Positions 1 to 10,856 of a DNA stretch of 10,856 nucleotides are shown in pieces; position 1 is the first letter of the stretch; every line of letters starts with the position of its first letter. The notes beneath the pieces were generated by a model. The model saw only the letters and a list, made by a program, of their open reading frames with translations. It made no database searches and was not told the origin of the DNA. Made by a program: the position numbers and the translations under genes. Where the stretch lies: positions 1-10,856 of the forward strand of contig CAYSCM010000005.1 of assembly GCA_964429815.1 (NCBI GenBank), given 5' to 3'. The DNA is from an uncultured Candidatus Saccharibacteria bacterium (GTDB lineage: Bacteria; Patescibacteriota; Minisyncoccia; Phycocordibacterales; CAYSCM01).

Positions 1-62
1 CTCAATGGTAGAGCAGCTCCCTGTTAAGGAGTTGGTTGTAGGTTCGAGTCCTACCACCGGAG
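1..62 (+). tRNA. tRNA-Asn (anticodon GUU), 5'-truncated by the window edge; CCA not encoded
   Basis: D-arm GCTCAATGGTAGAGC-like at 1-14. Anticodon stem gctcc/ggagt (16-20/28-32) with 7-nt loop CTGTTAA gives anticodon GTT. Variable loop tggtt. T-arm gtagg-TTCGAGT-cctac (38-54). 3' acceptor strand caccgga plus discriminator g (55-62). Confidence 0.8.
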
Positions 63-83
63 CAGTAACACTTAGTAACACTC

Positions 84-104
84 CATGCCCGTCGGGCATG
101 TTTC
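84..104 (+). terminator. Hairpin terminator downstream of the tRNA
   Basis: Perfect palindrome catgccc-gtc-gggcatg (84-100) followed by ttt (101-103). Confidence 0.5.
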
Positions 105-146
105 GCCTCCTGCCGGCGGTGCTTCATTCCTGAGAGAATTGCCGGC

Positions 147-362
147 ATGTCTCGCGTCACTATTACGTTTTCGATCTCTTTACTCCCCGACATGGCCGCG
201 GACTTGGATCGCGTTTGCAAAGAGGAGCACCGCACGCGGTCCGAGCTAATCCGAGAGGCACTGCGACGATATTTTGCCCTTCGCACATTTTGGAAAGACA
301 AACTCGACCAGGCTCCGCTGGAGGCTTCATCGCCTCACCCACCGCGAGCTCCTGGGCGGTGA
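147..362 (+). CDS. Ribbon-helix-helix (CopG/ParD-type) DNA-binding protein, putative antitoxin or transcriptional repressor, 71 aa
   Basis: N-terminus MSRVTITFSISLLPDMAADLDRVCKEEHRTRSELIREALRRYF matches the RHH beta-strand-helix-helix pattern (T-I-T-F/L...SELIREAL). Direct repeats tgccggc at ~110 and ~141 upstream could form an operator. No partner toxin ORF lies downstream. Confidence 0.6.
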   Translation: MSRVTITFSISLLPDMAADLDRVCKEEHRTRSELIREALRRYFALRTFWKDKLDQAPLEASSPHPPRAPGR

Positions 363-682
363 ATGAATAAACGCGCGAGCTTGCAGGGATTGATTGTGGG
401 TAATCGAGGCCTATATGGCGCGCTCGGGCAAGGGATTTCTCATGGAGGTCCACATGCCTTGGAGTTCTTGGACTAAGAGCGGAAGCGGTGAATCGAAGAG
501 CAAAAGCGTCGAAGCCTCAAGAAGCTCGAGCGGAAACAGGGAGACGCACCACCTGAGCACGGCAGGAGGTGGACGCCACCACTCCGGCGGAGGCGACAGA
601 GGCAATCACACGCACGTCGTCGTTCAACACCGTGAGGGCCGCAGCACGGCCCACGCCGTCCCTCACAAGCATAATCGATAGA

Positions 683-1096
683 CTATCGGACTTGCGGAGA
701 GCCGCTGCCGCCCCTGAGCAGCGGCTCGATTTTTTTGTACTCTCTTGCTGCATCAAAAGCTTTGTACGACTGACTATATTCATGAGCGCCCTCGCAATAG
801 ACCGACACATCGAGCGCAAAATCTCTGACCTGCGAAGACAGCTGCTCAATTTCTGATATCAGAAAGAAGTAGGCCGAGAGTGGCATGTCGGTCTCGCCTC
901 TCTTGAGCTTTCTGAGCCCATACTCGAGCATGGCGCGTACGTCGATCGCGTCGACATTGAGAAATCCGATCAGCTTGGGGAGATGAGGGTTGTTCTTGTT
1001 ATCTGCCAGGAACTCGGCAAACGACTGACGCGATTCGTCAGAAAGCTTTGCTGCCACCCTTTCTTCGGCTGATGTCATGACGCGAGCATAGCACAC
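683..1096 (-). CDS. Hypothetical protein, 137 aa (131 aa if it starts at the ATG at 1078)
   Basis: The translation has protein-like composition (…KLIGFLNVDAIDVRAMLEYGLRKLKRGETDMPLSAYFFLISEIEQLSSQVRDFALD…), unlike the overlapping alternative-frame ORFs, which are R/S/A-rich. No recognisable motif. No clear SD. Confidence 0.45.
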   Translation of the reverse strand: MCYARVMTSAEERVAAKLSDESRQSFAEFLADNKNNPHLPKLIGFLNVDAIDVRAMLEYGLRKLKRGETDMPLSAYFFLISEIEQLSSQVRDFALDVSVYCEGAHEYSQSYKAFDAAREYKKIEPLLRGGSGSPQVR

Positions 1097-1199
1097 TCGC
1101 TATGAAGATCGGATTGAGCCTCCATCGCGATTGCCGTGGAGAAAAAATGGACTCAGTTCGATAGTGCGCGAGACCCCGCAGTCGAAGGTTTTTGAAAAC

Positions 1200-1379
1200 T
1201 TAGTTCGTCTCGTTTTTATTCGAGTCCATTTCGGGAGTTTGTAAGCGCTCGTGGATGCGCAGAACGACCGTTAGGTACTGACGCAGGTTATAGAGCCCCT
1301 CTTCCCTTCTCGCCTTTCTGGCTCGAGGCATGAGGCTTTGGATAAAAGCGTTCGGGTCAAACTTCTTCTTTTTGATCAT
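1200..1379 (-). CDS. Possible small basic protein, 59 aa (MIKKKKFDPNAFIQSLMPRARKARREEGLYNLRQYLTVVLRIHERLQTPEMDSNKNETN)
   Basis: ATG-initiated ORF missed by the 60-aa ORF cutoff. Lys/Arg-rich N-terminus. Same strand as, and ~100 bp upstream of, the 683..1096 ORF. No SD and no homology recognised. Confidence 0.2.
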   Translation of the reverse strand: MIKKKKFDPNAFIQSLMPRARKARREEGLYNLRQYLTVVLRIHERLQTPEMDSNKNETN

Positions 1380-1467
1380 TGCGGCACCCTACTTGATTGA
1401 TGAAGGAAAGCTACATCGGCGTGAGAATAAGGTACCGATCCGCAAGGGCTGATGAGGTGCGCCCGGT

Positions 1468-1496
1468 GGCTGCATGCTAAAATGAAGCATGCAGCC
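1468..1496. promoter_or_regulatory. Perfect 10-bp inverted repeat ggctgcatgc-N9-gcatgcagcc overlapping the start codon of the 1489 ORF (candidate operator or RNA hairpin)
   Basis: Read directly from the sequence. The right arm contains the ATG at 1489. Confidence 0.45.
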
Positions 1497-1725
1497 GTCT
1501 TCAACTTGGACCCCAGAAGAGTGGCGGGAGTTCGAAGGTAAGCTTCGCCTTCTGCCACTCGATGATCTCGCCGCTCTCTCTGGCAGGACCGGCCTTACAT
1601 TTACACGGCCCGCATCGGAGCTCACCAGAGAGGATTACATTGGCGCGCTCGACGAGTCTGACAAAACAGAGCTCTTGAAGGCGTACGACGAAGTAGTTTC
1701 CCGCCGAGGTCGACAGAACACCTAG
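1489..1725 (+). CDS. Small HeH/SAP (Rho-N-like) motif protein, 78 aa, hypothetical
   Basis: LLPLDDLAALSGRTGLTFTRPASELTREDYIGAL fits the helix-extended-helix pattern LxxLxxxELxxxAxxxGLxxxxxxxK/RxELIxxL of SAP/Rho-N/LEM domains. Protein-like composition. Convergent with doc. Confidence 0.45.
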   Translation: MQPSSTWTPEEWREFEGKLRLLPLDDLAALSGRTGLTFTRPASELTREDYIGALDESDKTELLKAYDEVVSRRGRQNT

Positions 1726-1730
1726 GTCTT

Positions 1731-2090
1731 TCACTCCTTCGCGAAGAGAAGATTTGCAATCTGGCGAATGACTGACTGGTGGTCGTCCTCCTGGATCTTC
1801 TCGATAAACACCGCAAGCTCGTCGAGCGTTGGGTTGTCGCCGCCAAAGTTCGGTGAGAGAGCGTTGACCTCACAGACGACGCTGAACACGAGACAGGCGG
1901 TGCGTTTGTTGCCGTCGGTGAACGGGTGATCTTTGATGAGGAAATAGATATACGCCACAGCCTTCTCTTCGATCGTGGCGTAGTTGGGTGCTCCGTAGTG
2001 GGCGCCCGTGATGTTCACGACGATAGACTCGACGATCTGCTGCGCCGAGACCGTCAGAGGGAATGAGACCAGCCCCTCCTTATGCAGCAA
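1731..2090 (-). CDS. doc: Doc (death-on-curing) toxin, Fic/Doc family kinase. Probable TTG start at 2090; the maximal ORF runs to a GTG at 2159
   Basis: Diagnostic Doc motif H-P-F-T-D-G-N-K-R (HxFx[D/N][A/G]NKR) in IKDHPFTDGNKRTA. N-terminal region IVESIVVNITGAHYG aligns to phage P1 Doc LIALHDANISRYGG. Starting at TTG gives a Doc-sized ~119-aa protein that overlaps the upstream ORF's stop by 11 nt. The GTG start at 2159 would overlap the upstream ORF by 80 nt. Confidence 0.85.
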   Translation of the reverse strand: MLHKEGLVSFPLTVSAQQIVESIVVNITGAHYGAPNYATIEEKAVAYIYFLIKDHPFTDGNKRTACLVFSVVCEVNALSPNFGGDNPTLDELAVFIEKIQEDDHQSVIRQIANLLFAKE

Positions 2091-2271
2091 CTCGTATACG
2101 AGGCAGACGCTTTTCGGCGGTACGAGTTGAAATGTTCTTTTTCCCGGTGTCGTAGTCACGAAGCGATTCTAAGACGGGCAGGTTCTTCTTGAGCTGCCCT
2201 TGTGCAACCTTCTCAAAGGATCCTTTTGCTGTTGTGCGGCGTTTGCTAGCCATACGGCGATTATACCTCAT
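2080..2271 (-). CDS. Putative antitoxin partner of Doc (not recognisably Phd/YefM-like). In-frame starts at TTG 2286, ATG 2271 and ATG 2253
   Basis: Small basic ORF immediately upstream of doc, whose TAA stop is embedded in the doc 5' region. It is placed by its position alone, which matches the toxin-antitoxin operon arrangement. Sequence …MASKRRTTAKGSFEKVAQGQLKKNLPVLESLRDYDTGKK…. Confidence 0.5.
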   Translation of the reverse strand: MRYNRRMASKRRTTAKGSFEKVAQGQLKKNLPVLESLRDYDTGKKNISTRTAEKRLPRIRVAA

Positions 2272-2286
2272 AATCGACACAATCAA
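2254..2286 (-). promoter_or_regulatory. Candidate sigma70-type promoter of the antitoxin-doc operon: TTGATT (2286..2281) - 15 bp - TATAAT (2265..2260), with ATG 2253 only 6 nt downstream (possible leaderless transcript)
   Basis: Hexamers read directly on the minus strand. The spacer is short (15 bp), so the call is tentative. Confidence 0.35.
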
Positions 2287-2407
2287 AAATGAAGCGACGC
2301 GGATACGATTCTAAGAGTCTAGAGTTGCATCCTTGGCTACCTAGACAATTTCTAAACGTGTGGTTGTATTCAGTTGGAGACTAACTGGTTCGAAGGGAGC
2401 AAAATCC

Positions 2408-2713
2408 ATGTCACTCGATCAGTGGCTTTTTCTAATCGGCGCAGGTTGGTGGCTCATCGTTGGAATGATCAGTACGCTCGTCAGCGAATACCGCACACAG
2501 TCCATCGTCGTGGTGATCGCCCAGATCCCGATCTGGGTTTTGATGCCATTGTGCTGCGTCGCTTGGCTAGCAAATAATTGGGCGACGAGTGAAGGCGGTG
2601 TTGCCGGTACAATCGTATTGGCCGCGATCTGCTGGCCCATTGCGGCGTTTCTCATGCATGCACTTGTCAAAGACCTTCGCGGTCATGGAGACCACGAGCC
2701 GCAGCACACCTAA
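2408..2713 (+). CDS. Small integral membrane protein (2 predicted TM helices), hypothetical, 101 aa
   Basis: MSLDQWLFLIGAGWWLIVGMISTLV… followed by IPIWVLMPLCCVAWLANNW…GTIVLAAICWPIAAFLM. GGGAG lies 10 nt upstream of ATG 2408, one of the few SD-like sites in the window. The longer ORF from 2360 lacks an RBS. Confidence 0.55.
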   Translation: MSLDQWLFLIGAGWWLIVGMISTLVSEYRTQSIVVVIAQIPIWVLMPLCCVAWLANNWATSEGGVAGTIVLAAICWPIAAFLMHALVKDLRGHGDHEPQHT

Positions 2714-2991
2714 GCACCCTTCGTCAGCGCCGTTCGCCACTGTGGTGGATGGCGCCTTCTTTTATGCCGTCCCCAACTCTTTCTCGACCTGCGTGGTAAA
2801 GTGTTTCAACAAGACGTCGAATGTTGCCTTCACGGCCATTCGAGGTGTGTCCCGAACAAGTGAGCAAACGAGAGCCGCGCGAAAGCGTGCTTCCGCATGA
2901 CCGAGCTTGCAACGACGGCAAGCCCTGCTTACCGCCGGAGTTTGATATTTTGAGCCATGATTTTGCCTACCCTTGCGGGGGGTTAAAGCTT

Positions 2992-3020
2992 TTGAAGATT
3001 CAGATAATTGGTAATATACT
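2992..3020 (+). promoter_or_regulatory. Candidate promoter TTGAAG-17bp-TATACT for the 3075 gene. An alternative -10 TATTAAT lies at 3054-3060.
   Basis: AT-rich island in a GC-rich window, with near-consensus hexamers and 17-bp spacing. Confidence 0.4.
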
Positions 3021-3074
3021 AGTCGCAAAACCGTCTTATACGGTAATTACAAGGTATTAATTTTATTTCATCAT

Positions 3075-3752
3075 ATGAGAAGAATTGCATTAATGCTTGG
3101 ATCCCTTGGGTTTCTTGCAGTAGGTAGCGTGGCGTTCGCGCAGACAGCGTCCACGACTACTAGTGGCACAACAACTGCAGCCCCCGCACAGCAGATAGTT
3201 CTGCAGATTGGCCCCACAGGCAAGGTTCTTTTGCGCGGCACCATTGATTCAGTGTCGGCGACGTCTCTCACCGTCAAGAGCTGGGGCGGTGATTGGACTA
3301 TAAACGTACCCGCGTCTGCTGGGGTCATGCCGCAGGGCGTTGCGCTCTCAAGCTTCCATCAGGGTGACTTTGTCGGAGTTCATGGAACGGTCAACCAAAG
3401 CAGCAGTTGGACCATTGACGCAACCCTCGTGCGCGACTGGACCGCGCGTCAAGCATTGAATCAAGAGATAAAGAACAATGTTCAGACGGTACATCGGGAA
3501 ATGGCAGCCGGACCGAGAACAATCCAGGGAGTCCTTAGCAACCTGAATGCGTCAGCACAGACCTTCACGCTCACATCCTCAGAGGGTACCGCTTACTCGG
3601 TTACGCTGGCTTCGGGCGCAAAACTTCTCGCTCAAAATTGGGCGACGCTTGATCTTAGCAAGGTGAGCAACGGGGATACGGTTCGCGTATACGGAACGAT
3701 CTCGGGCTCGGCAATATCAGCGACGATCTTCCGAGATGTGTCGGTGAAATAA
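3075..3752 (+). CDS. Secreted protein with two tandem DUF5666-like beta domains, 225 aa
   Basis: Sec signal peptide MRRIALMLGSLGFLAVGSVAFA|Q, then a T/S/A-rich linker. The ~85-aa module is present twice (GKVLLRGTIDSVSATSLTVKSWGGDWTINV…GDFVGVHGTV…TIDATLV and RTIQGVLSNLNASAQTFTLTSSEGTAYSVTL…GDTVRVYGTISGSAISATIF). The pattern G-V/I-…-TLTV/TFTL…GD-V-V-G matches the DUF5666 family from memory. Confidence 0.75.
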   Translation: MRRIALMLGSLGFLAVGSVAFAQTASTTTSGTTTAAPAQQIVLQIGPTGKVLLRGTIDSVSATSLTVKSWGGDWTINVPASAGVMPQGVALSSFHQGDFVGVHGTVNQSSSWTIDATLVRDWTARQALNQEIKNNVQTVHREMAAGPRTIQGVLSNLNASAQTFTLTSSEGTAYSVTLASGAKLLAQNWATLDLSKVSNGDTVRVYGTISGSAISATIFRDVSVK

Positions 3753-3772
3753 TCCGGGGTCGAAAGTAAAAA

Positions 3773-3806
3773 CAAACGACGGTCACGCGACCGTCGTTTG
3801 TTTTTT
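3773..3806 (+). terminator. Rho-independent terminator: perfect 12-bp stem caaacgacggtc / gaccgtcgtttg, loop acgc, then TTTTTT
   Basis: Read directly. Lies 21 nt after the 3752 stop. An A-run upstream makes it potentially bidirectional. Confidence 0.85.
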
Positions 3807-4102
3807 GTGGCCACGTTCAGATTAAATAGCGCAAGCTAAGATAGAGAGGCATGTGAATCTTATCCGCCCATACTTATCCATGCCCTAACGGCTTTAAATG
3901 CGCGAAGCTAAACCTTGCTGCGATAAATTCGTTAAAATAGTAAAATGAGGCATGTTTTTAGGAAAGCAACATGAGAGGAGGATCAATAAGCTGCTCTCGG
4001 GCGGCTTTTTGTTTTGAGAAACCAGGCTTCTACGCGCATGGATTCTGAGCAGTCGGTCGCAAAGCGAAGGAAGCCTTCTTCACGCGAAACGTACAGTCGA
4101 TT

Positions 4103-4111
4103 TGGTATACT
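4103..4111 (+). promoter_or_regulatory. Extended -10 element TGgTATACT upstream of the VOC gene pair
   Basis: The same TGgTATACT nonamer recurs at 6533-6541 (panD). TATACT is also the -10 of the 3075 promoter. Confidence 0.35.
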
Positions 4112-4138
4112 GCCCCGGTTACTAGTAAAAAAATCTCT

Positions 4139-4543
4139 ATGAACCCCGTCGTTCACTTCGAGATGCCCTACGAGAACCGCGATCGTATGGCGGACTTTTA
4201 TTCGCAGGCGTTCGGATGGCAGCTCAATAAGCTGGGGTCTGACATGGGCGACTACGTCGTCGCTATGACCTCGGAGCGCTCCGACCCGAGAGCCCGCCCG
4301 GAGAAGCCCGGCGTTATCGATGGTGGCTTCTTTAAGAAAAGTAAGCAAAACCAGGTGCCGGGCATCGTCGTAGCCGTCGACGATATCAAAGCCGCGATGA
4401 GGAAGGTCGAGGCTTCCGGCGGAAAAATAATCGGCGCGAGCCAAGGAAAGGAACCTGACGACATCCCCGGCGTCGGGCTCTATATCTCGATTCAAGATAC
4501 CGAGGGTAACCGCGTGGCGCTTCTTGAGCCGCGAGGAATGTAG
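4139..4543 (+). CDS. VOC (glyoxalase/bleomycin-resistance/dioxygenase) family protein, 134 aa
   Basis: N-terminal VHFEMPYENRDRMADFYSQAFGW, a beta-alpha-beta-beta-beta module start typical of PhnB/glyoxalase-like VOC proteins. C-terminal …GLYISIQDTEGNRVALLEP. Confidence 0.8.
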   Translation: MNPVVHFEMPYENRDRMADFYSQAFGWQLNKLGSDMGDYVVAMTSERSDPRARPEKPGVIDGGFFKKSKQNQVPGIVVAVDDIKAAMRKVEASGGKIIGASQGKEPDDIPGVGLYISIQDTEGNRVALLEPRGM

Positions 4544-4545
4544 CC

Positions 4546-4932
4546 ATGTTCAAAAACACTCCGACATTTACGAGCATCTCCGCTCCCGACATTGCCGCGA
4601 TGAGGGCCTTTTATGGCGACGTACTCGGACTTCCGGTCGATGAGGCTCCCGAGGGACTCACCGTCAAGCTTTTCGGCGGCGGCCACTTCTTCATCTATCC
4701 TTCAGAGGAGTACCGCGCGCCTGAACATACGGTCCTCAATTTCATTGTTCCCGATATAGACAAAGCCGTGGATAGGCTCAATGCCAAGAGCGTCACGATG
4801 GAGCAGTATCCGGAATTCCGGACCGATGAGAGGGGCATTTGCCGCAACGACGGGAAGCGGCCCGGACCCAAGGCCATCGCGTGGTTCAAGGACCCGGCAG
4901 AGCACATCCTCGCGGTGATAGAGGAAAAGTGA
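4546..4932 (+). CDS. Second VOC/glyoxalase-family protein, 128 aa. Starts 2 nt after the previous stop, so likely co-transcribed.
   Basis: AMRAFYGDVLGLPV…HTVLNFIVPDIDKAVDRL…AIAWFKDPAEHILAVIE, a VOC-fold pattern. Confidence 0.75.
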   Translation: MFKNTPTFTSISAPDIAAMRAFYGDVLGLPVDEAPEGLTVKLFGGGHFFIYPSEEYRAPEHTVLNFIVPDIDKAVDRLNAKSVTMEQYPEFRTDERGICRNDGKRPGPKAIAWFKDPAEHILAVIEEK

Positions 4933-4969
4933 CACTCGTGAGTAGAAACTTAGCAGGTAATAAAAAAAT

Positions 4970-5305
4970 ATGAAGAAATTTTTAGCACTCCTCAATGCCC
5001 CGCTCGCCTCCTTCGATAGGGCGCTCAAAATGCCAAAAGAGGATATGGGCCCGGCAATGGAGGCGTGGAACACATGGATGGCCGCGCACAAGAAAGATCT
5101 CATTGACCCGGGTGCTCCTGTCGGCAAGAGCATGAAAGTCACTCCCGCCGGAGCAGAAAAGTTCCGCAACCAGGTCGGCGGCTACATGGTGGTCCAGGCG
5201 AAATCGCTCGAGGAGGCGGCCAAACTGTTCGGTAAAGGCCACCCGCACTATATGCTCGAGAACGCATGGGTCGAGGTGACGGAAATACTGCCGATGGATA
5301 TGTAA
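4970..5305 (+). CDS. YciI-like / dimeric alpha+beta-barrel (Dabb) family protein, 111 aa
   Basis: MKKFLALLNAPL… …GGYMVVQAKSLEEAAKLFGKGHPHY…VEV resembles the YCII-related domain signature. Confidence 0.55.
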   Translation: MKKFLALLNAPLASFDRALKMPKEDMGPAMEAWNTWMAAHKKDLIDPGAPVGKSMKVTPAGAEKFRNQVGGYMVVQAKSLEEAAKLFGKGHPHYMLENAWVEVTEILPMDM

Positions 5306-5402
5306 GCACGCTCGCAGAAATTTTTTAAGCCCTTGCCCTACCCCAAACCCCTTAAAAAATTTCAGCTCGCTCCCGGCGGAAAAGATTCTAGATGCAGTAT
5401 AG

Positions 5403-5434
5403 AAAAACGCGCGGCCCAGGGGCCGCGCGTTTTG
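5403..5434. terminator. Strong bidirectional rho-independent terminator shared by the convergent YciI-like and PLP-enzyme genes
   Basis: AAAAA-cgcgcggcc-cagg-ggccgcgcg-TTTT: a 9-bp GC stem with an A-run on one side and a T-run on the other. The minus-strand gene's stop is 14 nt away. Confidence 0.85.
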
Positions 5435-5447
5435 TCGTTCACCCACT

Positions 5448-6443
5448 TTAGTCCACTACGTCGAGGATGGTCGAGTACTTGTCCGCATAGCTCTCTCCCA
5501 AATCGGGACAAACGAACGCGGCCTTGATGCTCCCATCCCTGCCGCGTAGCGCATCGAGCCTTCCTGAATCTTTCTCCTTCCGAAGAAAGTCAAGAAGTCC
5601 TACGTAGGCAAGGCCGGAACTTGGCCCTGGGCAAACGCCGAGCGCTCTGCGAAGGTCGAGGCTCGCTTGGTAGGCGCGCGAACGCTTCCCGAGCGTCATG
5701 AGGGCACCCTCGGAGATAGCGCTTCTCCAAGGGAGACGCACGAGCTCTAGGGATAGTTTGCTTTCGGCGCGAACGCCGGGCACCGGTCCCTCGTCCCCTT
5801 CCGCGCACACCACACCGACGACCTTGGTGGAAAATTCGCAAGCCCGTATGTAACGGGCAAGACCCACCACGGTGCCGCCGGTACCGACACCGGCGGCGAC
5901 CGCTGAGAGGGTTGCCTCGAAGGGGTCGAGGATCTTCGGCGCAAGGAATTTCTCGAACGCCTTCGGATTGTCGTCGTTGTCGTACTGGTCGAGGTTGAGG
6001 TATCCGGGTTCTTTGCCCTTTTCTCGCGCACGCTCGATGCAGGTAGCCTCTCCTTCACGTTCGGGAAAATCCTGGAAGCGTGCGCCGTAGAAACGCAGAA
6101 GCGCGAGCTTAGTGAGTGGTGTGTCCGAGCGCACGTAGAGCTCGACTTTGAGACCGAAGGCCGGCGCCGCGATCGCAAGCCCAAGCCCGGTGTTCCCTGA
6201 CGTACCTTCGACGATTGTATGTACGCCCTCAAGACGTCCGGCTTCATGCGCGCGAAGGAGCATGTACACCGCCGGGATGACCTTGTGCGGGAGTCCTGCC
6301 TTGTCGAACCCGAGTGCCGCAAAAATCCTGACCTGGTCCGTGATGAGTGGGTCAAACCCCGTCGGAATCCTCACCAAGGGGACGCTTCGGTTTTGGGGAT
6401 GGAGGAACTTTAAAATCCCCCCACTCCCGTTTGGCGTCTTCAT
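5448..6443 (-). CDS. PLP-dependent fold-type-II enzyme of the cysteine synthase / cystathionine beta-synthase family (CysK/CysM/SbnA-like), 331 aa from ATG 6443
   Basis: PHKVIPAVYMLLRAHEAG (PLP-Lys region). IVEGTSGNTGLGLAIAA matches the VEPTSGNTGIALA motif. QYDNDDNPKAFEKFLAPKILD matches QFxNPxNPxxHxxTTGPEI. AAGVGTGGTVVGLARYI matches the G-rich loop GVGTGGT. GGAGAG SD lies 8 nt upstream of ATG 6443. The longer ORF to 6557 would run into the panD promoter. Confidence 0.85.
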   Translation of the reverse strand: MKTPNGSGGILKFLHPQNRSVPLVRIPTGFDPLITDQVRIFAALGFDKAGLPHKVIPAVYMLLRAHEAGRLEGVHTIVEGTSGNTGLGLAIAAPAFGLKVELYVRSDTPLTKLALLRFYGARFQDFPEREGEATCIERAREKGKEPGYLNLDQYDNDDNPKAFEKFLAPKILDPFEATLSAVAAGVGTGGTVVGLARYIRACEFSTKVVGVVCAEGDEGPVPGVRAESKLSLELVRLPWRSAISEGALMTLGKRSRAYQASLDLRRALGVCPGPSSGLAYVGLLDFLRKEKDSGRLDALRGRDGSIKAAFVCPDLGESYADKYSTILDVVD

Positions 6444-6549
6444 AGTGCTCTCCGTAGTCGTTGAACGGTATGCGGCCGCGCCGCACATTCCGCCTAGAGC
6501 GTAATCCGCCCGTGCCACGCTGTCAAAGACGGTGGTATACTTTGGTGCC

Positions 6550-6927
6550 ATGCTCATAAACGTCTGTATAGCGAAGATCCATCGAGCGACTGTGACCGAT
6601 GCGGACCTCGACTACGTAGGCTCCATCACCATCGACCAAAACATCCTCGAGGCGGCCGGGCTTCGTCCTGGGCAAATGGTCCAGATAACCAATGTTAGCA
6701 ACGCCGTGCTCTGGCGGACCTACATACTCGCCGGAAAAGCCGGGAGGGGCGATATCGTTCTCAACGGCCCCCCGGCGCGCCTTTTTAAAAAAGGCGATAA
6801 GGTCATCATCCTCGGCGAGGCATATCTCGAACCCTCAGAAGTCAAAGATTCGCATCCGACCGTCGTGTTCGTCGACGAAAAAAATAAGATCATCCGCGTC
6901 GAGGAGAGCGCCTGGAAGAAGTCGTAG
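6550..6927 (+). CDS. panD: Aspartate 1-decarboxylase (pyruvoyl-dependent), PanD; alternative GTG start at 6532
   Basis: Near-full-length match to PanD: AKIHRATVTDADLDYVGSITIDQNILEAAGL…Y…GRGDIVLNGPPARLFKKGDKVIILGEAYLEPSEV…PTVVFVD. Includes catalytic K and H, the Gly-Ser self-cleavage site (VG|SITID) and the C-terminal pattern seen in Thermus-type PanD. ATG 6550 gives the canonical N-terminal length. An extended -10 at 6533-6541 suggests a near-leaderless mRNA. Confidence 0.9.
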   Translation: MLINVCIAKIHRATVTDADLDYVGSITIDQNILEAAGLRPGQMVQITNVSNAVLWRTYILAGKAGRGDIVLNGPPARLFKKGDKVIILGEAYLEPSEVKDSHPTVVFVDEKNKIIRVEESAWKKS

Positions 6928-6930
6928 GAC

Positions 6931-7542
6931 ATGTGGTGGTCACCGACCCATTGGGTGAATGTCATTTTGGCCGCTTCGGTCCCCCACCACTGGCTCATGC
7001 CGGTCTCTATCATCGCCGGCACATGGATCCTCGAAGACCTGACCACCATTCTCGTCGGCATCCTGGCCGCGGACGGACTTATCAAGATAGGAGTAGCACT
7101 CATCGCCCTTTGGATAGGCATCATCACGGGCGACTACGGCCTCTACTTCCTTGGTATGCTTGCCAAAACCCATCCGCGCATCCGGCGGTTTGTCGAACAC
7201 GAGCGGCTCCTCCCCATACGACGGCGCCTTGAGCGCAATCTGCGTGAGGTCGTCATTTCGACGCGCTTCATTCCGGGATTGCGACTCCCCACCTACGTCG
7301 CCTGCGGATTTTTCCGGATGCCGTTTTGGGAATTCGCGCAGTCGGTCGTCCTTGCAACCCTCATCTGGACCACAGGGCTCTTCGCCGTGGCGTACCTCTT
7401 CGGTCAATCGACCTCTGACTGGCTTGGTTTCTGGCGGTGGCCGATCGCGATAGGGGTGTCAGCTTTTTTCTTTTTTATGGCGAAGCGAAGAGCGAAGCGC
7501 ACTGCGTATGAAGACAACAATGAACGAACCGACCCCCGCTGA
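6931..7542 (+). CDS. DedA / SNARE-associated (VTT domain) family inner-membrane protein, 203 aa
   Basis: Multi-TM hydropathy. DedA signature …GLYFLGMLAK…STRFIPGLRLPTYVACG (R-F-IPG-R…AG). Starts 4 nt after the panD stop, so same operon. Confidence 0.85.
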   Translation: MWWSPTHWVNVILAASVPHHWLMPVSIIAGTWILEDLTTILVGILAADGLIKIGVALIALWIGIITGDYGLYFLGMLAKTHPRIRRFVEHERLLPIRRRLERNLREVVISTRFIPGLRLPTYVACGFFRMPFWEFAQSVVLATLIWTTGLFAVAYLFGQSTSDWLGFWRWPIAIGVSAFFFFMAKRRAKRTAYEDNNERTDPR

Positions 7543-8638
7543 CATAGACCGGAGATGGCATGAACTTTCGGGGCGCCTTCCCGGTGAGCCGATTTTCAGT
7601 TTTTTCGAGAATTGGCCGGGTTCCTTTTTCTACATTCCTGTCGCGGTGGCGTGGTTTTTCTACGCGCTGCGCTACCGAAGCTTCACGCTTCCGCTCCTCA
7701 GCAATCCGTCGATAGAATTCGCGGGGCTGTGCGGAGAGAGCAAGTGCGGGGTCCTCAGCCTCTTGGGATCCTCCGGAAAGGAGCGGGTAGCCTCCTACAT
7801 GCGATTTGAAAATACCACCGGGCGCGCGAGCGCGGATGAGCTCTTGGGTAGTGCCACCGCTGGCGGCCTCCGGCTCCCCTTCGTTCTCAAACCCGACATC
7901 GGACGGCGCGGCACGGGGGTGCGCATCGTGCGGACGAAGGAAGACGTCGAAGCCTACCTTGAAGCTTTTCCGCGAGGCCGCGCTCTCATCGTCCAGCGGC
8001 TTATCGAAGAAGAAGGCGAAGCGGGGGTCATGTACCTGCGCTACCCCGGCGAAGGACGGGGGAAAATCATCTCGCTTACCCTTAAGTACTTCCCTGCCGT
8101 CGTCGGCGATGGCAGAGCAAGCCTTCGGGAGCTCATTTTGCGCGATGAGCGCGCCCGCCGGCTTGCCAAGAGCTACTTCACGTACCACAAAGATTCTCTG
8201 GAAACTATCGTGCCGCGGGGGAAACGCATAAAGTTGGTTGCTGTCGGAAACCACGTGCGCGGTTCTCTCTTTCGGGATGGCCGCCCGTTCATAACGTCGG
8301 GCATGACCGACGCATTCGACAAGATCGCGCGTGAAATCCCGCATTTCCACCTTGGACGGTTTGACGTGCGCTTCGAGAAACTCTCTGACCTCGCCGTCGG
8401 AGAAAACTTCACCATCATCGAGGTAAACGGCGCCGGAAGCGAGGCGACCCACATTTGGGACCGCCGTGCGAAGCTTTTTGACTCCTATCGAACGCTCTTT
8501 GCGCATGCCAAGGCGCTCTTCGACATCGGCCTCCACTACAAACGCGAAGGCCGTAGAGCTCCCTCGTTCGGGGAAATCGCTCGGGCCTATGTCGCGGAAA
8601 AAAAACTTCTCGCTTCGTATCCCCCGCTTACGGAGTAG
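7508..8638 (+). CDS. ATP-grasp ligase (RimK / alpha-L-glutamate-ligase-like) with an N-terminal transmembrane anchor, 376 aa
   Basis: N-terminal TM helix SFFYIPVAVAWFFYAL. ATP-grasp core: LPFVLKPDIGRRGTGVRIV (K-P…G-x-G-V), ALIVQRLIEEE, and the Mg-binding IIEVNGAGSE (E-x-N motif as in RimK/Ddl). The start overlaps dedA by 35 nt. An in-frame ATG at 7520 is an alternative. Confidence 0.8.
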   Translation: MKTTMNEPTPADIDRRWHELSGRLPGEPIFSFFENWPGSFFYIPVAVAWFFYALRYRSFTLPLLSNPSIEFAGLCGESKCGVLSLLGSSGKERVASYMRFENTTGRASADELLGSATAGGLRLPFVLKPDIGRRGTGVRIVRTKEDVEAYLEAFPRGRALIVQRLIEEEGEAGVMYLRYPGEGRGKIISLTLKYFPAVVGDGRASLRELILRDERARRLAKSYFTYHKDSLETIVPRGKRIKLVAVGNHVRGSLFRDGRPFITSGMTDAFDKIAREIPHFHLGRFDVRFEKLSDLAVGENFTIIEVNGAGSEATHIWDRRAKLFDSYRTLFAHAKALFDIGLHYKREGRRAPSFGEIARAYVAEKKLLASYPPLTE

Positions 8639-10856
8639 AGAGCGTCGTTGATGACGTTGATGACGTTGATGACGTTGATGACGTTGATGACGTTTCGACT
8701 ATAACGGTGCGCGTGCTCGTCGCGGTGTTTCCCGCTGCATCGGTCGCGACGTAGTCGATAGTATGGGTGCCAGGAAGACCAGTATTGAGAGAAACTTCCA
8801 TGACAGCGACCCCATCGACGTAGGTCGTATATCCGAGGTTTTGGCTCACATTGTCGGAGACGGTGGCGCCAAGGTCGGAATACGCCTCTCCCACGTGAAT
8901 GGTGGCGGGGTTATTACCTTGTATGACGATAGTCGGCGGCGTCGAATCCAAAGAGGTTTTCGAGATACTCCCTCCCGATGATGTGCTGCTGGAACTTACG
9001 CTCAAGCTTCCTGTTGTACCTGCCGCCGCGGAGGCTGAGAGGAGTTTCACGAGGTCATCTTTCGTCACGCACACGCCGCTGACGCACAACTTTTCGACAT
9101 AGACAATGTCGGAGTGGACTTCCTTTGCGAACACGCGATCGAACACTCCGGCCGCAGCGTAGATAGCGCCGTCGAATGCATGGACGAGTAGTTGTCCGAG
9201 AGAGGAGAGCGCGTCACGAAGTTCCTGAGAGCTGTCGGAAAACGCTCCGGCTCCTGCGACGCTCGACGTTGCCGCACCGGGAGGTGCAACGAGATATGAA
9301 ATCGTCGTCGTCGGCAAAAGCGGAGCGACAAGGGCATGGAGCTCCTGGACGGCGGAGACGAGGTAGGGGGTAAAGCCCGCATAATTGAGGGCGAGCGTCC
9401 CCCAACTACTTTGATATACCAGATCGGGTGCGATCTTCTGAACTTCTTGCGCAAGAAAACCTGTGTGAGTCGGGGTTCCTGAAGCCTCGGCAAGCCAGTT
9501 ATAGGTCACGGGATTAAGGGACAAGACCGTTCCAAGTGCGGGGGCGAGCTTCTCGATATTATTTTTAAGCGTCGCATCGGACGAACAGGTAACACCGGTC
9601 GTCGGGATGATCCAACAACCGCCAGCAGCATTACCGAAGGCAGCGACGGCAGTGGCGGCGCCCACGGAAGCATTGCCAACGGAGAGAAGGGACGAGGTTG
9701 CGGTTGTTGTGCCGATACCGACACTGCCCGTGTAGTTAATCGTGATGGTCGAAGTGCTCGTCGTTGCAAAGCTATCCGAGCTCGTGGCGATGTAGAGGTT
9801 CCCGCCGTTGGAGCGTATAGACCAGTGCTTTTGGTTAGACCCTGCGCTCGGATCGGTAAGGGTAAGCTGTGGACCGGTCGAAGATGCGATTTGAAGTGCC
9901 CACTGCGGAGTCGTGGTGCCTATGCCCAAAATCCCGCTCGGGGCTATCGTAAGAGGCCCGGGGCCTGATGAGGTCGCATAGGTAGAAGGAGAGGATGTCG
10001 AGAAGTACAGAAAGCCGCCGGCATTTCTGAAGCTCCAGTGAACGTTCGTAAGGGAGGATGGGTCCGAGAGCGCAAGTTGTGCTCCGGTCGAGCTCGCAAT
10101 TTGGAGGGCCCACTGCGGTGAGGTCGTGCCGATGCCGACCTTGAGCGCTCCGGCGAGGGCGAGCGCAGTGGTATCGGTCGTCGAAGTTGCCCATTGAGTA
10201 CAGCCCGCCGCAGTGATGAGCCCATTTTTGTCCGTGCGCAGACAGGCTGTATTGGTACCCCCTAAACTTGAAAGCCAGAAATTTGTCGTTGAGGCATTCG
10301 TGCTCACAAAGTTTGTCGTGGTCGCCGAGGTGCCGGTCGCGTTCACGAAGGTGAAATTCTGGAGCGTCGTGGAGCCAGTGGCCAGAAGAGTGCTGAAGGT
10401 GCCGAGTCCCGTCGAGGTGATGTTGCCAGCGGAGAGGACGGTGGCGAAGAGATTGGTGGAAGAGGCGGTGGTTGAGAAAATGGTCGAGCTTGTGGCATTC
10501 CCCAAGGTCGTCGTGGCAAGGGTGGCGAATGAAGCGAATACGTTCGTTGAGGAAGCTGTGGTCGTAAACAACGTCGAGCTCGTGGCGTTCCCTAGTGTCG
10601 TCGTCGCCGCGTTGAGGTTGCTAGCAAAGAGATTGGTGCTGCTGGCGGTGGTCGAAAAGATGGTCGACGAGGTGGCATTCCCTAAAGTCGTGGTGGCAAG
10701 AGTGATAAAGGAAGCGAACAAGTTCGTCGAAGAGGCGGTAGTGGCAAAGAACGTCGAGCTCGTGGCATTGCCTAGAGTTGTCGTAGCCGCGTTGAGATTA
10801 CTGGCAAAGAGGTTGGTGGAGGAGGCGGTCGTTGCGAAGAAAGAGGTGCTGGTTGC
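8631..10856 (-). CDS. Large Thr/Ser/Ala-rich repetitive fibre / tailspike-like protein with a C-terminal S74 intramolecular-chaperone domain, an Ig-like (DUF5011-like) domain and a (TSS)5 tail. The 5' end (N-terminus) lies beyond the window end.
   Basis: The minus-strand frame stays open from 10856 to the TAA at 8628-8630. The apparent start at 10721 is a TTG inside a repeat, and upstream codons continue the same 30-aa repeat. 30-aa repeats ATTTLGNATSSTxFxTTASSTNLFAS… span ~10390-10856. A duplicated module IGTT(S/T)PQWALQIASSTG…W S(F/I)R(N/S)(A/N)GG(F/N)LY lies at ~9700-10140. The S74 signature CSS|DATLKNNIEKLAPALGTVLSLNPVTYNWL…GFLAQEVQKIAPDLV…GTLALNYAGFTPYLVSAVQEL (SDxxxK; cleavage Ser codon ~9579-9581) is followed by a ~160-aa chaperone body. 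PTIVIQGNNPATIHVGEAYSDLGATVSDNV…THTIDYVATDAAGNTATSTRTVIV lies at ~8694-8939. Confidence 0.85.
8647..8691. repeat. Perfect 9-bp x5 tandem repeat (gttgatgac)5 encoding (TSS)5 at the C-terminus of the fibre protein
   Basis: Read directly. Partial copies flank it (8644-8646, 8692-8694). The unit length is a multiple of 3, so copy-number change keeps the frame. Confidence 0.9.
10390..10856. repeat. Imperfect ~90-bp (30-aa) tandem repeats, at least 5 copies in an alternating two-flavour (60-aa) pattern, continuing beyond the window
   Basis: Protein-level repeats (…NLNA-ATTTLGNATSSTxF-TTASSTNLFAS-FxTL-ATTTLGNATSST…). DNA copies are recognisably similar but carry synonymous and near-synonymous differences. 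Confidence 0.8.

Follow-up and report, generated by a model that had tools for sequence, protein, structure and literature searches.

Doc toxins of the Fic fold have been described in the Phd-Doc toxin-antitoxin (TA) pairs of phage P1 and of the Enterococcus faecalis chromosome, and phosphorylation of EF-Tu by Doc is attributed to Castro-Roa et al. (2013), as cited within PMC10440598. The proteins that neutralise Doc are bent helices without sequence similarity between systems (PMC13034048), and a stabilised helical element of Phd on its own (SUMO-Phd-C) neutralises a Doc (PMC10440598). Doc is also known with antitoxins other than Phd, namely in the MazE-Doc pair 'TasA-TasB' (PMC1626090) and in Doc:PanA, which carries a Phd-C element (PMC10440598). 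Here we describe a locus of an uncultured Candidatus Saccharibacteria bacterium (contig CAYSCM010000005.1, positions 1 to 10,856; this stretch of 10,856 nucleotides (nt) is called the window below), in which a Doc-family gene starts inside a small upstream gene that belongs to an unannotated family. The whole locus lies on the minus strand, where both open reading frames (ORFs) can be read from the sequence, and it has the generic layout of a type II TA system: two small co-directional adjacent genes, conserved co-occurrence, and variable context. The small ORF, a putative antitoxin gene, and its product are referred to as AT. Gene caller output for the contig of the window, which is also present in run SRR12313482, contains the 142-amino acid (aa) Doc, but not the small ORF.

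A first-pass annotation, made from the letters of the window alone, had proposed a Doc-type toxin with the kinase motif HPFTDGNKR, and profile searches agree with this assignment. The 142-aa protein scored 40.3 bits against the Pfam Fic/DOC family PF02661 (cut-off 24), a domain carried by all listed Doc homologues, and it matched the PHROG 'Doc-like toxin' group at 3.8e-14. Nearly all of the ∼195 homologues are 135-144 aa long, and those with a named source all come from metagenomes of Patescibacteria (candidate phyla radiation, CPR). Two alignments were built, one of 30 and one of 97 members. In the larger one, loop residues H78, F80, D82, G83, N84, K85, and R86 are invariant, and the loop, with Lys85 present, fits the Doc kinase-type motif H-x-F-x-(D/N)-(A/G)-N-K-R, where lysine replaces the glycine of Fic proteins.

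The AlphaFold2 (AF2) model derived from the 97-sequence alignment has a mean predicted local distance difference test score (pLDDT) of 92.4. Residues 1-5 are disordered and residues 6-14 form an ordered coil; these are followed by six helices (15-27, 37-51, 63-76, 84-98, 112-121, and 127-139), with the catalytic loop H78-R86 placed between helix 63-76 and helix 84-98. The best Foldseek matches to this model are P1 Doc chains (3K33 (3k33_A), 3DD7, and 3KH2; probability 1.00, template modelling scores 0.68/0.77), and FICD proteins rank after them. In addition, the family profile matches the 139-aa E. faecalis Doc (9VZC) at 7.6e-8. We conclude that the 142-aa protein is a Doc-fold, Doc-motif Fic protein of a divergent CPR clade. 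By analogy through its motif, it would be predicted to phosphorylate EF-Tu, to arrest translation, and to be toxic. Two PADLOC candidate single-gene defence proteins, PDC-S23 (58 bits) and PDC-S05, also match the Doc domain through their C-terminal part, which hints at a phage-defence role for Doc-like domains.

The first-pass annotation had placed the TAA stop of the small ORF inside the 5' region of doc, with an overlap of 11 nt if doc starts at TTG 2090 and of 80 nt if it starts at GTG 2159. This geometry is correct, but the preference given to TTG 2090, with the long overlap as the less likely option, is reversed by homologue comparison and the structure model. The N-terminal ∼25 residues of Doc are conserved in both alignments (MTxEKKxFQPxxSxxVCxxYELL). 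L25 is invariant in both, Y22 is invariant among 30 members and at least 90% conserved among 97, and L24, the residue that the TTG codon encodes, is nearly invariant (at least 90% conserved in the 97 homologues). Residues 15-27 form helix 1 of the model with a pLDDT of ∼97. A start at TTG 2090 would cost 23 N-terminal residues, including the conserved Y22 and most of helix 15-27. Because GTG 2159 is the only in-frame start that retains the conserved N terminus, we assign the start to this codon; doc begins at GTG 2159 and overlaps the small ORF by 80 nt. The long overlap is a real, conserved architecture, as it spans 62-80 nt (mode 74) across 23 loci.

An ordinary, translationally coupled TA operon with a 119-aa Doc initiated from TTG 2090 would have the short overlap that is common among TA systems, the sequence AAGGAGG just downstream of the antitoxin stop, and a parallel in those gene callers that, once they accept the small ORF, return a truncated Doc of 103-122 aa (in locus L090, for example, calling the small ORF truncated Doc to 103 aa). 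We consider this arrangement highly improbable, given that L24 lies within the conserved N-terminal segment and in helix 1 of the fold, that the E. faecalis Doc is about as long as the 142-aa protein, and that an ATG occupies the conserved upstream position in 22 of 23 loci. The AAGGAGG heptamer (2075-2081) was rejected as a Shine-Dalgarno sequence for doc: it lies inside doc, is followed by no in-frame start codon, and is not conserved, since the region encodes HKEG in the window and HNSG, RSQG, and others in homologues. No Shine-Dalgarno sequence was found before the assigned doc start.

The start codon itself differs in the window. Among the 23 loci, doc starts with ATG in 22, and in 21 of these the ATG is embedded in the codons for Y34-D35 of the small protein (tATGAy). 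The window has TAC GAC at this site and uses a GTG two codons upstream, in the context cGTGAc. The loss of the canonical ATG (TAC GAC for TAT GAY) might mean that the window carries a degenerating or silent copy, since it alone among the 23 loci has no ATG in the canonical position or adjacent to it, and frameshifted copies are found elsewhere (L028, L030, and L032). This seems quite unlikely to us: both ORFs are intact and keep all invariant residues, the GTG two codons upstream can serve as a start, and for P0003, a relative with 73% identity, the called protein likewise begins at a Val/GTG codon and shares the MTTTP... N terminus. In L030 and L032 the N-terminal part of doc is frameshifted and in L028 the small ORF is; these copies could be pseudogenes or assembly errors.

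The distribution of the small ORF was analysed in 26 full-length Doc-family loci taken from GTDB genomes, which span Saccharibacteria, Paceibacterota, Nomurabacteria, Moraniibacteria, and Kaiserbacteria together with a few otherwise-labelled bins. In 25 of the 26 loci, an ORF homologous to AT was present upstream of doc. It invariably occupies frame +2 with respect to doc and ends 148-166 nt before the codon for the catalytic histidine; the remaining locus, L028, has the frameshifted copy. A reverse look-up from the small protein found a Fic gene directly downstream in L090 and L092. When AT homologues were aligned (A2, 29 sequences; A3, 112 sequences), S30, D35, G37, K39, I41, and T43 were invariant and L21, N24, L31, Y34, K38, S42, and L50 nearly invariant in both sets. 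Eight residues are invariant over the 29 sequences, which diverge down to ∼32% identity with the protein of the window, and six over the 112. Conservation peaks at the centre of the protein (residues 21-43), where the family core reads QLxxNxxVxESLRDYDxGKKxIST, and the tail is variable.

A search with the AT profile returned 212 called proteins, all short; the named ones are all 'hypothetical' and none has a Pfam domain. The best 120 of the 212 are 54-90 aa long, mostly below 70. A search with the single sequence found four homologues, a result that fits with gene callers usually suppressing the small ORF. An exhaustive hidden Markov model (HMM) search of 1.84 billion representatives gave 72 matches, nearly all shorter than 100 aa and all small proteins except P0290 (204 aa, phage-like) and P0299 (1075 aa). 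The family is therefore self-contained and not a fragment of a larger known antitoxin. Considering its presence in 25 of 26 loci, its conservation at the protein level, and its synonymous third-position variation, comparative evidence indicates that the upstream ORF is a real protein-coding gene.

The core motif, as SL[KR]D[YH][DN]EGKKxI[SPA]T, is also found in three proteins that have no Fic/Doc neighbour. These are P0290 (L087, 2380-2994), which is zinc-ribbon-like, 204 aa long, and encoded on a 50-kb contig that holds many small ORFs as well as DnaB; P0285 (L088, 2501-2770), an 89-aa protein near an integrase; and P0277, an 81-aa protein with a hydrophobic C terminus. They may be phage-borne antitoxin mimics.

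Codon-level comparison of the loci shows how the two genes share the overlap. In the ∼100 nt of the small ORF that precede doc, variability is highest at AT third codon positions, as expected of a coding frame, and this signature runs on through the first ten overlapped codons (Y34-T43). Invariant AT residues have several synonymous codons there; the four found for G37 (GGA, GGT, GGG, and GGC), for instance, come with a changing Doc residue (E, V, G, or A) in the other frame. After T43 of the small protein, it is the Doc wobble positions that vary; Y22 and L25 of Doc are invariant and the AT tail varies. Across Doc codons 10-21, T-ending codons that would create a stop in the small ORF are avoided at 62 of 63 sites, compared with 43% T-ending codons at equivalent sites elsewhere in doc, and Y22 is encoded by TAC in 21 of 22 loci, compared with TAT in 16 of 23 cases for tyrosine elsewhere. 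The single exception to this avoidance is L014, where the small ORF ends early. The first ∼30 nt of the overlap thus set the invariant AT core against the disordered N terminus of Doc, and the last ∼45 nt set helix 1 of Doc against the variable AT tail. At the level of sequence comparison, these patterns show purifying selection in both frames, with the constrained segment of each protein paired with a tolerant segment of the other.

These data bear on whether the conservation of the upstream ORF reflects a second protein at all, or comes instead from a regulatory element in the RNA or DNA or from the coding of doc itself. Such an origin could account for the conserved Y34-D35 codons (tATGAy), which double as the doc start codon, and for the hydrophobic residues in the AT tail, which are forced by the Doc codons TCN, TGY, and TAC. 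It is largely refuted, and we give it hardly any weight, because the ∼100 nt upstream of doc are most variable at third codon positions, RNAalifold found no consensus structure in the overlap (0 pairs; window RNA against shuffles, z = 0.25), and the motif persists in proteins without an overlapping Doc frame (P0285, P0290, and P0277), where IST-x-x-(V/I/L)-x-x-x-(F/Y/L) is kept after the core.

A programmed frameshift or slippage at the GGAAAAAAA run, fusing the small protein to Doc, was considered and rejected since the run is not conserved: at the G-K-K codons (window 2133-2143), 13 of 23 loci have an A7 run, but the window has A5 and three loci have A3-A4. One 95-aa protein (P0279) is a frameshift fusion of the AT N terminus to the Doc N terminus at this run, which could be due to an assembly error or to slippage.

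The promoter proposed by the first-pass annotation, TTGATT and TATAAT separated by 15 nt with the latter 6 nt before ATG 2253, is present exactly as described, and its suggestion of a leaderless arrangement gains comparative support. Of 25 loci, 14 have a TAnnnT sequence exactly 6 nt before the AT ATG and another 3 have it at 7 nt, where leaderless mRNAs are expected to have their -10 element at ∼6-8 nt; the position matrix from -12 to -7 reads TATAAT. A Shine-Dalgarno-like tetramer precedes the ATG in only 1 of the 25 loci. Positions -35 and -34 are T-rich (17/25 and 14/25), a weak conservation. With TATAAT 6 nt before ATG 2253, transcription is predicted to begin on the A of this ATG or on a neighbouring base, and thus the AT mRNA is probably leaderless, with good comparative support. 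A 63-aa version of the small ORF, starting at ATG 2271, was rejected in favour of ATG 2253 because it would contain the -10 box; the spacing between the ATG and the core in the family also favours ATG 2253.

Most genes in the window lack a Shine-Dalgarno sequence, and several have a -10-like box 5-9 nt before their ATG, such as TAAAAT 5 nt before ATG 1489 (+), TATACA 7 nt before ATG 6557 (-), and TATACT 9 nt before the ATG of PanD (6550, +). Initiation without a leader or without a Shine-Dalgarno sequence may be widespread in this organism and no peculiarity of the TA pair.

The small partner does not resemble known antitoxin classes. Its AF2 model (112 sequences, pLDDT 77) consists of a long helix (6-36), a loop (GKKNIST), and a short second helix (44-49); this all-helical model contains neither a ribbon-helix-helix, AbrB, or YefM fold nor another DNA-binding fold, and the Phd/YefM N-terminal domain (PF02604, a beta-sheet DNA-binding fold) is absent from it. 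The protein had no match in Pfam, NCBIfam, PHROGs, or PADLOC, and 29 family members likewise had none in Pfam or NCBIfam. A profile search of the PDB returned only a designed protein (E = 1.6), and a Foldseek search of the PDB with the model found nothing. The view of the first-pass annotation that the ORF is not Phd/YefM-, ribbon-helix-helix-, or AbrB-like accordingly stands. Its alternative of a C-terminal-tail neutraliser found no direct support, as the centre of the protein is the most conserved part and the tail is variable. The small protein is usually basic (median net charge +5) and Doc has a median charge of -2; charge complementarity between the two was examined and set aside, being weak and inconsistent across loci.

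A translated small protein need not neutralise Doc. It could be an upstream regulatory ORF that gates doc, or an adaptor, an activator, or a nucleic-acid-binding protein, and its basic character, the lack of detectable homology to any antitoxin, the ORF staying open across the doc start and helix 1 region despite its variable tail, and the relatives that bear the motif without a Doc neighbour would all fit such a role. On the other hand, eight (n = 29) and six (n = 112) invariant residues argue for a structured protein-protein or protein-ligand interface and not for mere translation. Position upstream of the toxin, size, and strict co-occurrence form the classic signature of a type II antitoxin, and Doc neutralisers are known to be sequence-diverse helices. 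We judge a role other than neutralisation to be unlikely.

The explanation that we favour, and hold to be reasonably likely, is a two-gene TA-like module in which a leaderless mRNA encodes a helical neutraliser whose gene overlaps that of a Doc-type kinase; the neutralisation, toxicity, target, and translational interference in this model are predicted. One mRNA, probably leaderless, would be made from the TATAAT upstream of ATG 2253. Its first cistron would encode a 57-aa basic helical protein of a new, unannotated family without a DNA-binding fold, and its second cistron, from GTG 2159 inside the first gene, the 142-aa Doc-type Fic kinase. The small protein would bind Doc through a helical element, as Phd does through its bent C-terminal helix, and thereby block its kinase activity. 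The doc start, which lacks a Shine-Dalgarno sequence, would sit under ribosomes that translate the small ORF, and the rate of Doc synthesis would be lower than that of its partner. Termination of AT translation 74-80 nt downstream of the doc start is, as judged from bacterial reinitiation in general, probably too far away for reinitiation. Because of this distance and of the position of the start under AT ribosomes, Doc is probably initiated independently and inefficiently, which would keep the partner in excess. Doc left free would phosphorylate EF-Tu and arrest translation.

Several observations weigh against this model. The Doc of the window scored 33.3 bits against NCBIfam TIGR01550 (DOC_P1), below the cut-off of 38.65, so it is a member of a divergent Doc-like CPR clade and not a P1 Doc equivalog. 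Comparison of the small protein with the verified P1 Phd by hhalign gave a probability of 0.09, that is, no Phd similarity. The Fic inhibitory motif (S/T)xxxE(G/N) is not present in AT alignments A2 and A3, where a tyrosine stands four residues after S30, the distance from S30 does not suit the motif, and G37 can be preceded by E, A, Q, T, S, or K. Type II antitoxins usually repress their operon by means of a DNA-binding domain, but the small protein has no recognisable one, which leaves classical autoregulation unexplained. With GTG in place of the ATG used by 22 of 23 relatives, expression of doc in the window might be very low. A few distant AT relatives are standalone, lie on phage-like contigs, or adjoin a non-Doc gene, so the AT motif is not exclusive to pairing with Doc.

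A bolder form of the same model would make the family a new class of Doc antitoxin that consists of the helical neutralising element only, with dosage set by the maintained ∼74-80 nt overlap on a leaderless mRNA and not by transcriptional autoregulation, and would regard the copies on the phage-like contigs L087 and L088 as mimics that disarm Doc-based abortive infection in Patescibacteria. We offer this tentatively, as a doubtful extension.

Table 1. Features of the Doc/small-ORF locus in the window
Feature	Position	Strand	Remarks
Small partner gene, putative antitoxin (AT)	2080..2253	-	57 aa + TAA (2082-2080); protein MASKRR...RIRVAA, full sequence MASKRRTTAKGSFEKVAQGQLKKNLPVLESLRDYDTGKKNISTRTAEKRLPRIRVAA
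Doc-family gene	1731..2159	-	142 aa; GTG start at 2159 within AT codons R32-D33 (cGTGAc)
Dual-coding overlap	2080..2159	-	80 nt; doc in the +1 frame relative to AT
Catalytic loop HPFTDGNKR (H78-R86)	1902..1928	-	Doc-type, Lys85; read from sequence
AT conserved core E29-T43 (ESLRDYDTGKKNIST)	2125..2169	-	3' 35 nt (2125-2159) within the doc overlap
-35-like hexamer TTGATT	2281..2286	-	15 nt from the -10 box; alternative TTTTGA at 17 nt
-10 box TATAAT	2260..2265	-	ends 6 nt before ATG 2253
TTG codon, rejected doc start	2088..2090	-	Doc codon L24, within helix 1

The coordinates of the locus are given in Table 1. Comparison of neighbourhoods showed that the surrounding genes differ among the loci of three relatives, which would be typical of TA mobility. 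No intrinsic terminator was found 3' of doc on the minus strand. A convergent ORF for a 78-aa acidic protein without a family match (1489-1725, +) ends 5 nt from the doc stop; it was called on the identical public contig (L001), but not on a related one (L002). Elsewhere in the window, a tRNA gene (Rfam RF00005, 49.6 bits) is represented by its 3' part alone (1-62, +), as the window begins within it; ARAGORN missed this gene because of the truncation. A 71-aa ribbon-helix-helix ORF (CopG, PF01402; 40.4 bits) at 147-362 (+) is uncalled on L001 and has no obvious adjacent toxin partner. The gene at 8628-10721 (-) encodes a Ser/Thr-rich product of 697 aa that contains repeated ATTTLGNATSSTIFSTTASSTNLFA units and is probably a surface protein.

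Gene finders systematically miss or mis-call the small-ORF family, by leaving out the small ORF or by shortening Doc. Should the partner prove to be a neutraliser, it would add a new, domain-minimal antitoxin family to the Doc repertoire. The pair would then also be a clean bacterial case of a long out-of-frame overlap with both frames under selection, useful for studies of how constraint is divided between overlapping genes, and annotation pipelines, which at present do not allow long overlaps, could be tested on it. It would further suggest that a toxin-to-antitoxin ratio can be set translationally, without a DNA-binding antitoxin, in genome-reduced bacteria that are seemingly rich in Shine-Dalgarno-less or leaderless starts.

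The locus shares several properties with Phd-Doc systems (P1, 3K33/3DD7; E. faecalis, 9VZC). In both, the toxin is small and has a single domain, a Fic fold of six helices with an HxFx(D/N)(A/G)NKR loop; P1 Doc is the best structural match of the window toxin and E. faecalis Doc its best sequence match. The partner is encoded immediately upstream in the same orientation, and the helical structure predicted for the small protein recalls the C-terminal helix by which Phd binds Doc. It differs in that the small protein has neither the Phd/YefM N-terminal DNA-binding domain nor detectable Phd similarity, that genes of the window family overlap by 62-80 nt out of frame instead of by a few nt, that the operon is apparently leaderless, and that the toxin falls below the TIGR01550 cut-off. 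Partner swapping by Doc is established from TasA-TasB and Doc:PanA, and the SUMO-Phd-C experiment showed that a linear helical element can suffice without a globular or DNA-binding domain. The antitoxins of these two systems, however, have a globular domain (AbrB/MazE or Panacea), whereas the ∼57-aa small protein has none and its family is unannotated. In the class I Fic pairs VbhT-VbhA and FicT-FicA, too, the gene just before that of the Fic-fold toxin encodes a helical protein of no more than ∼60 aa; unlike these pairs, AT lacks (S/T)xxxE(G/N), and the toxin of the window is Doc-type (NKR) and not of the AMPylating type (GNGR).

Leaderless TA operons occur in mycobacteria, and the window operon would resemble them in that the upstream regulator is translated from a leaderless transcript. 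Long same-strand overlaps are known in prokaryotes and phages, for instance from restriction-modification C-protein/endonuclease pairs (PMC2997769), where, as in the window, the downstream gene starts inside the upstream one, a placement that could set relative expression. Compared with known overlaps, that of the window family is much longer (74-80 nt), with selection on both frames across a phylum-level radiation. A limited literature search found no description of such a Doc/small-ORF arrangement. Unconventional partners of Doc have been described before; the novelty lies in the unannotated partner family, which lacks any DNA-binding domain, in the long overlap that is conserved and under selection in both frames, and in the conserved leaderless start.

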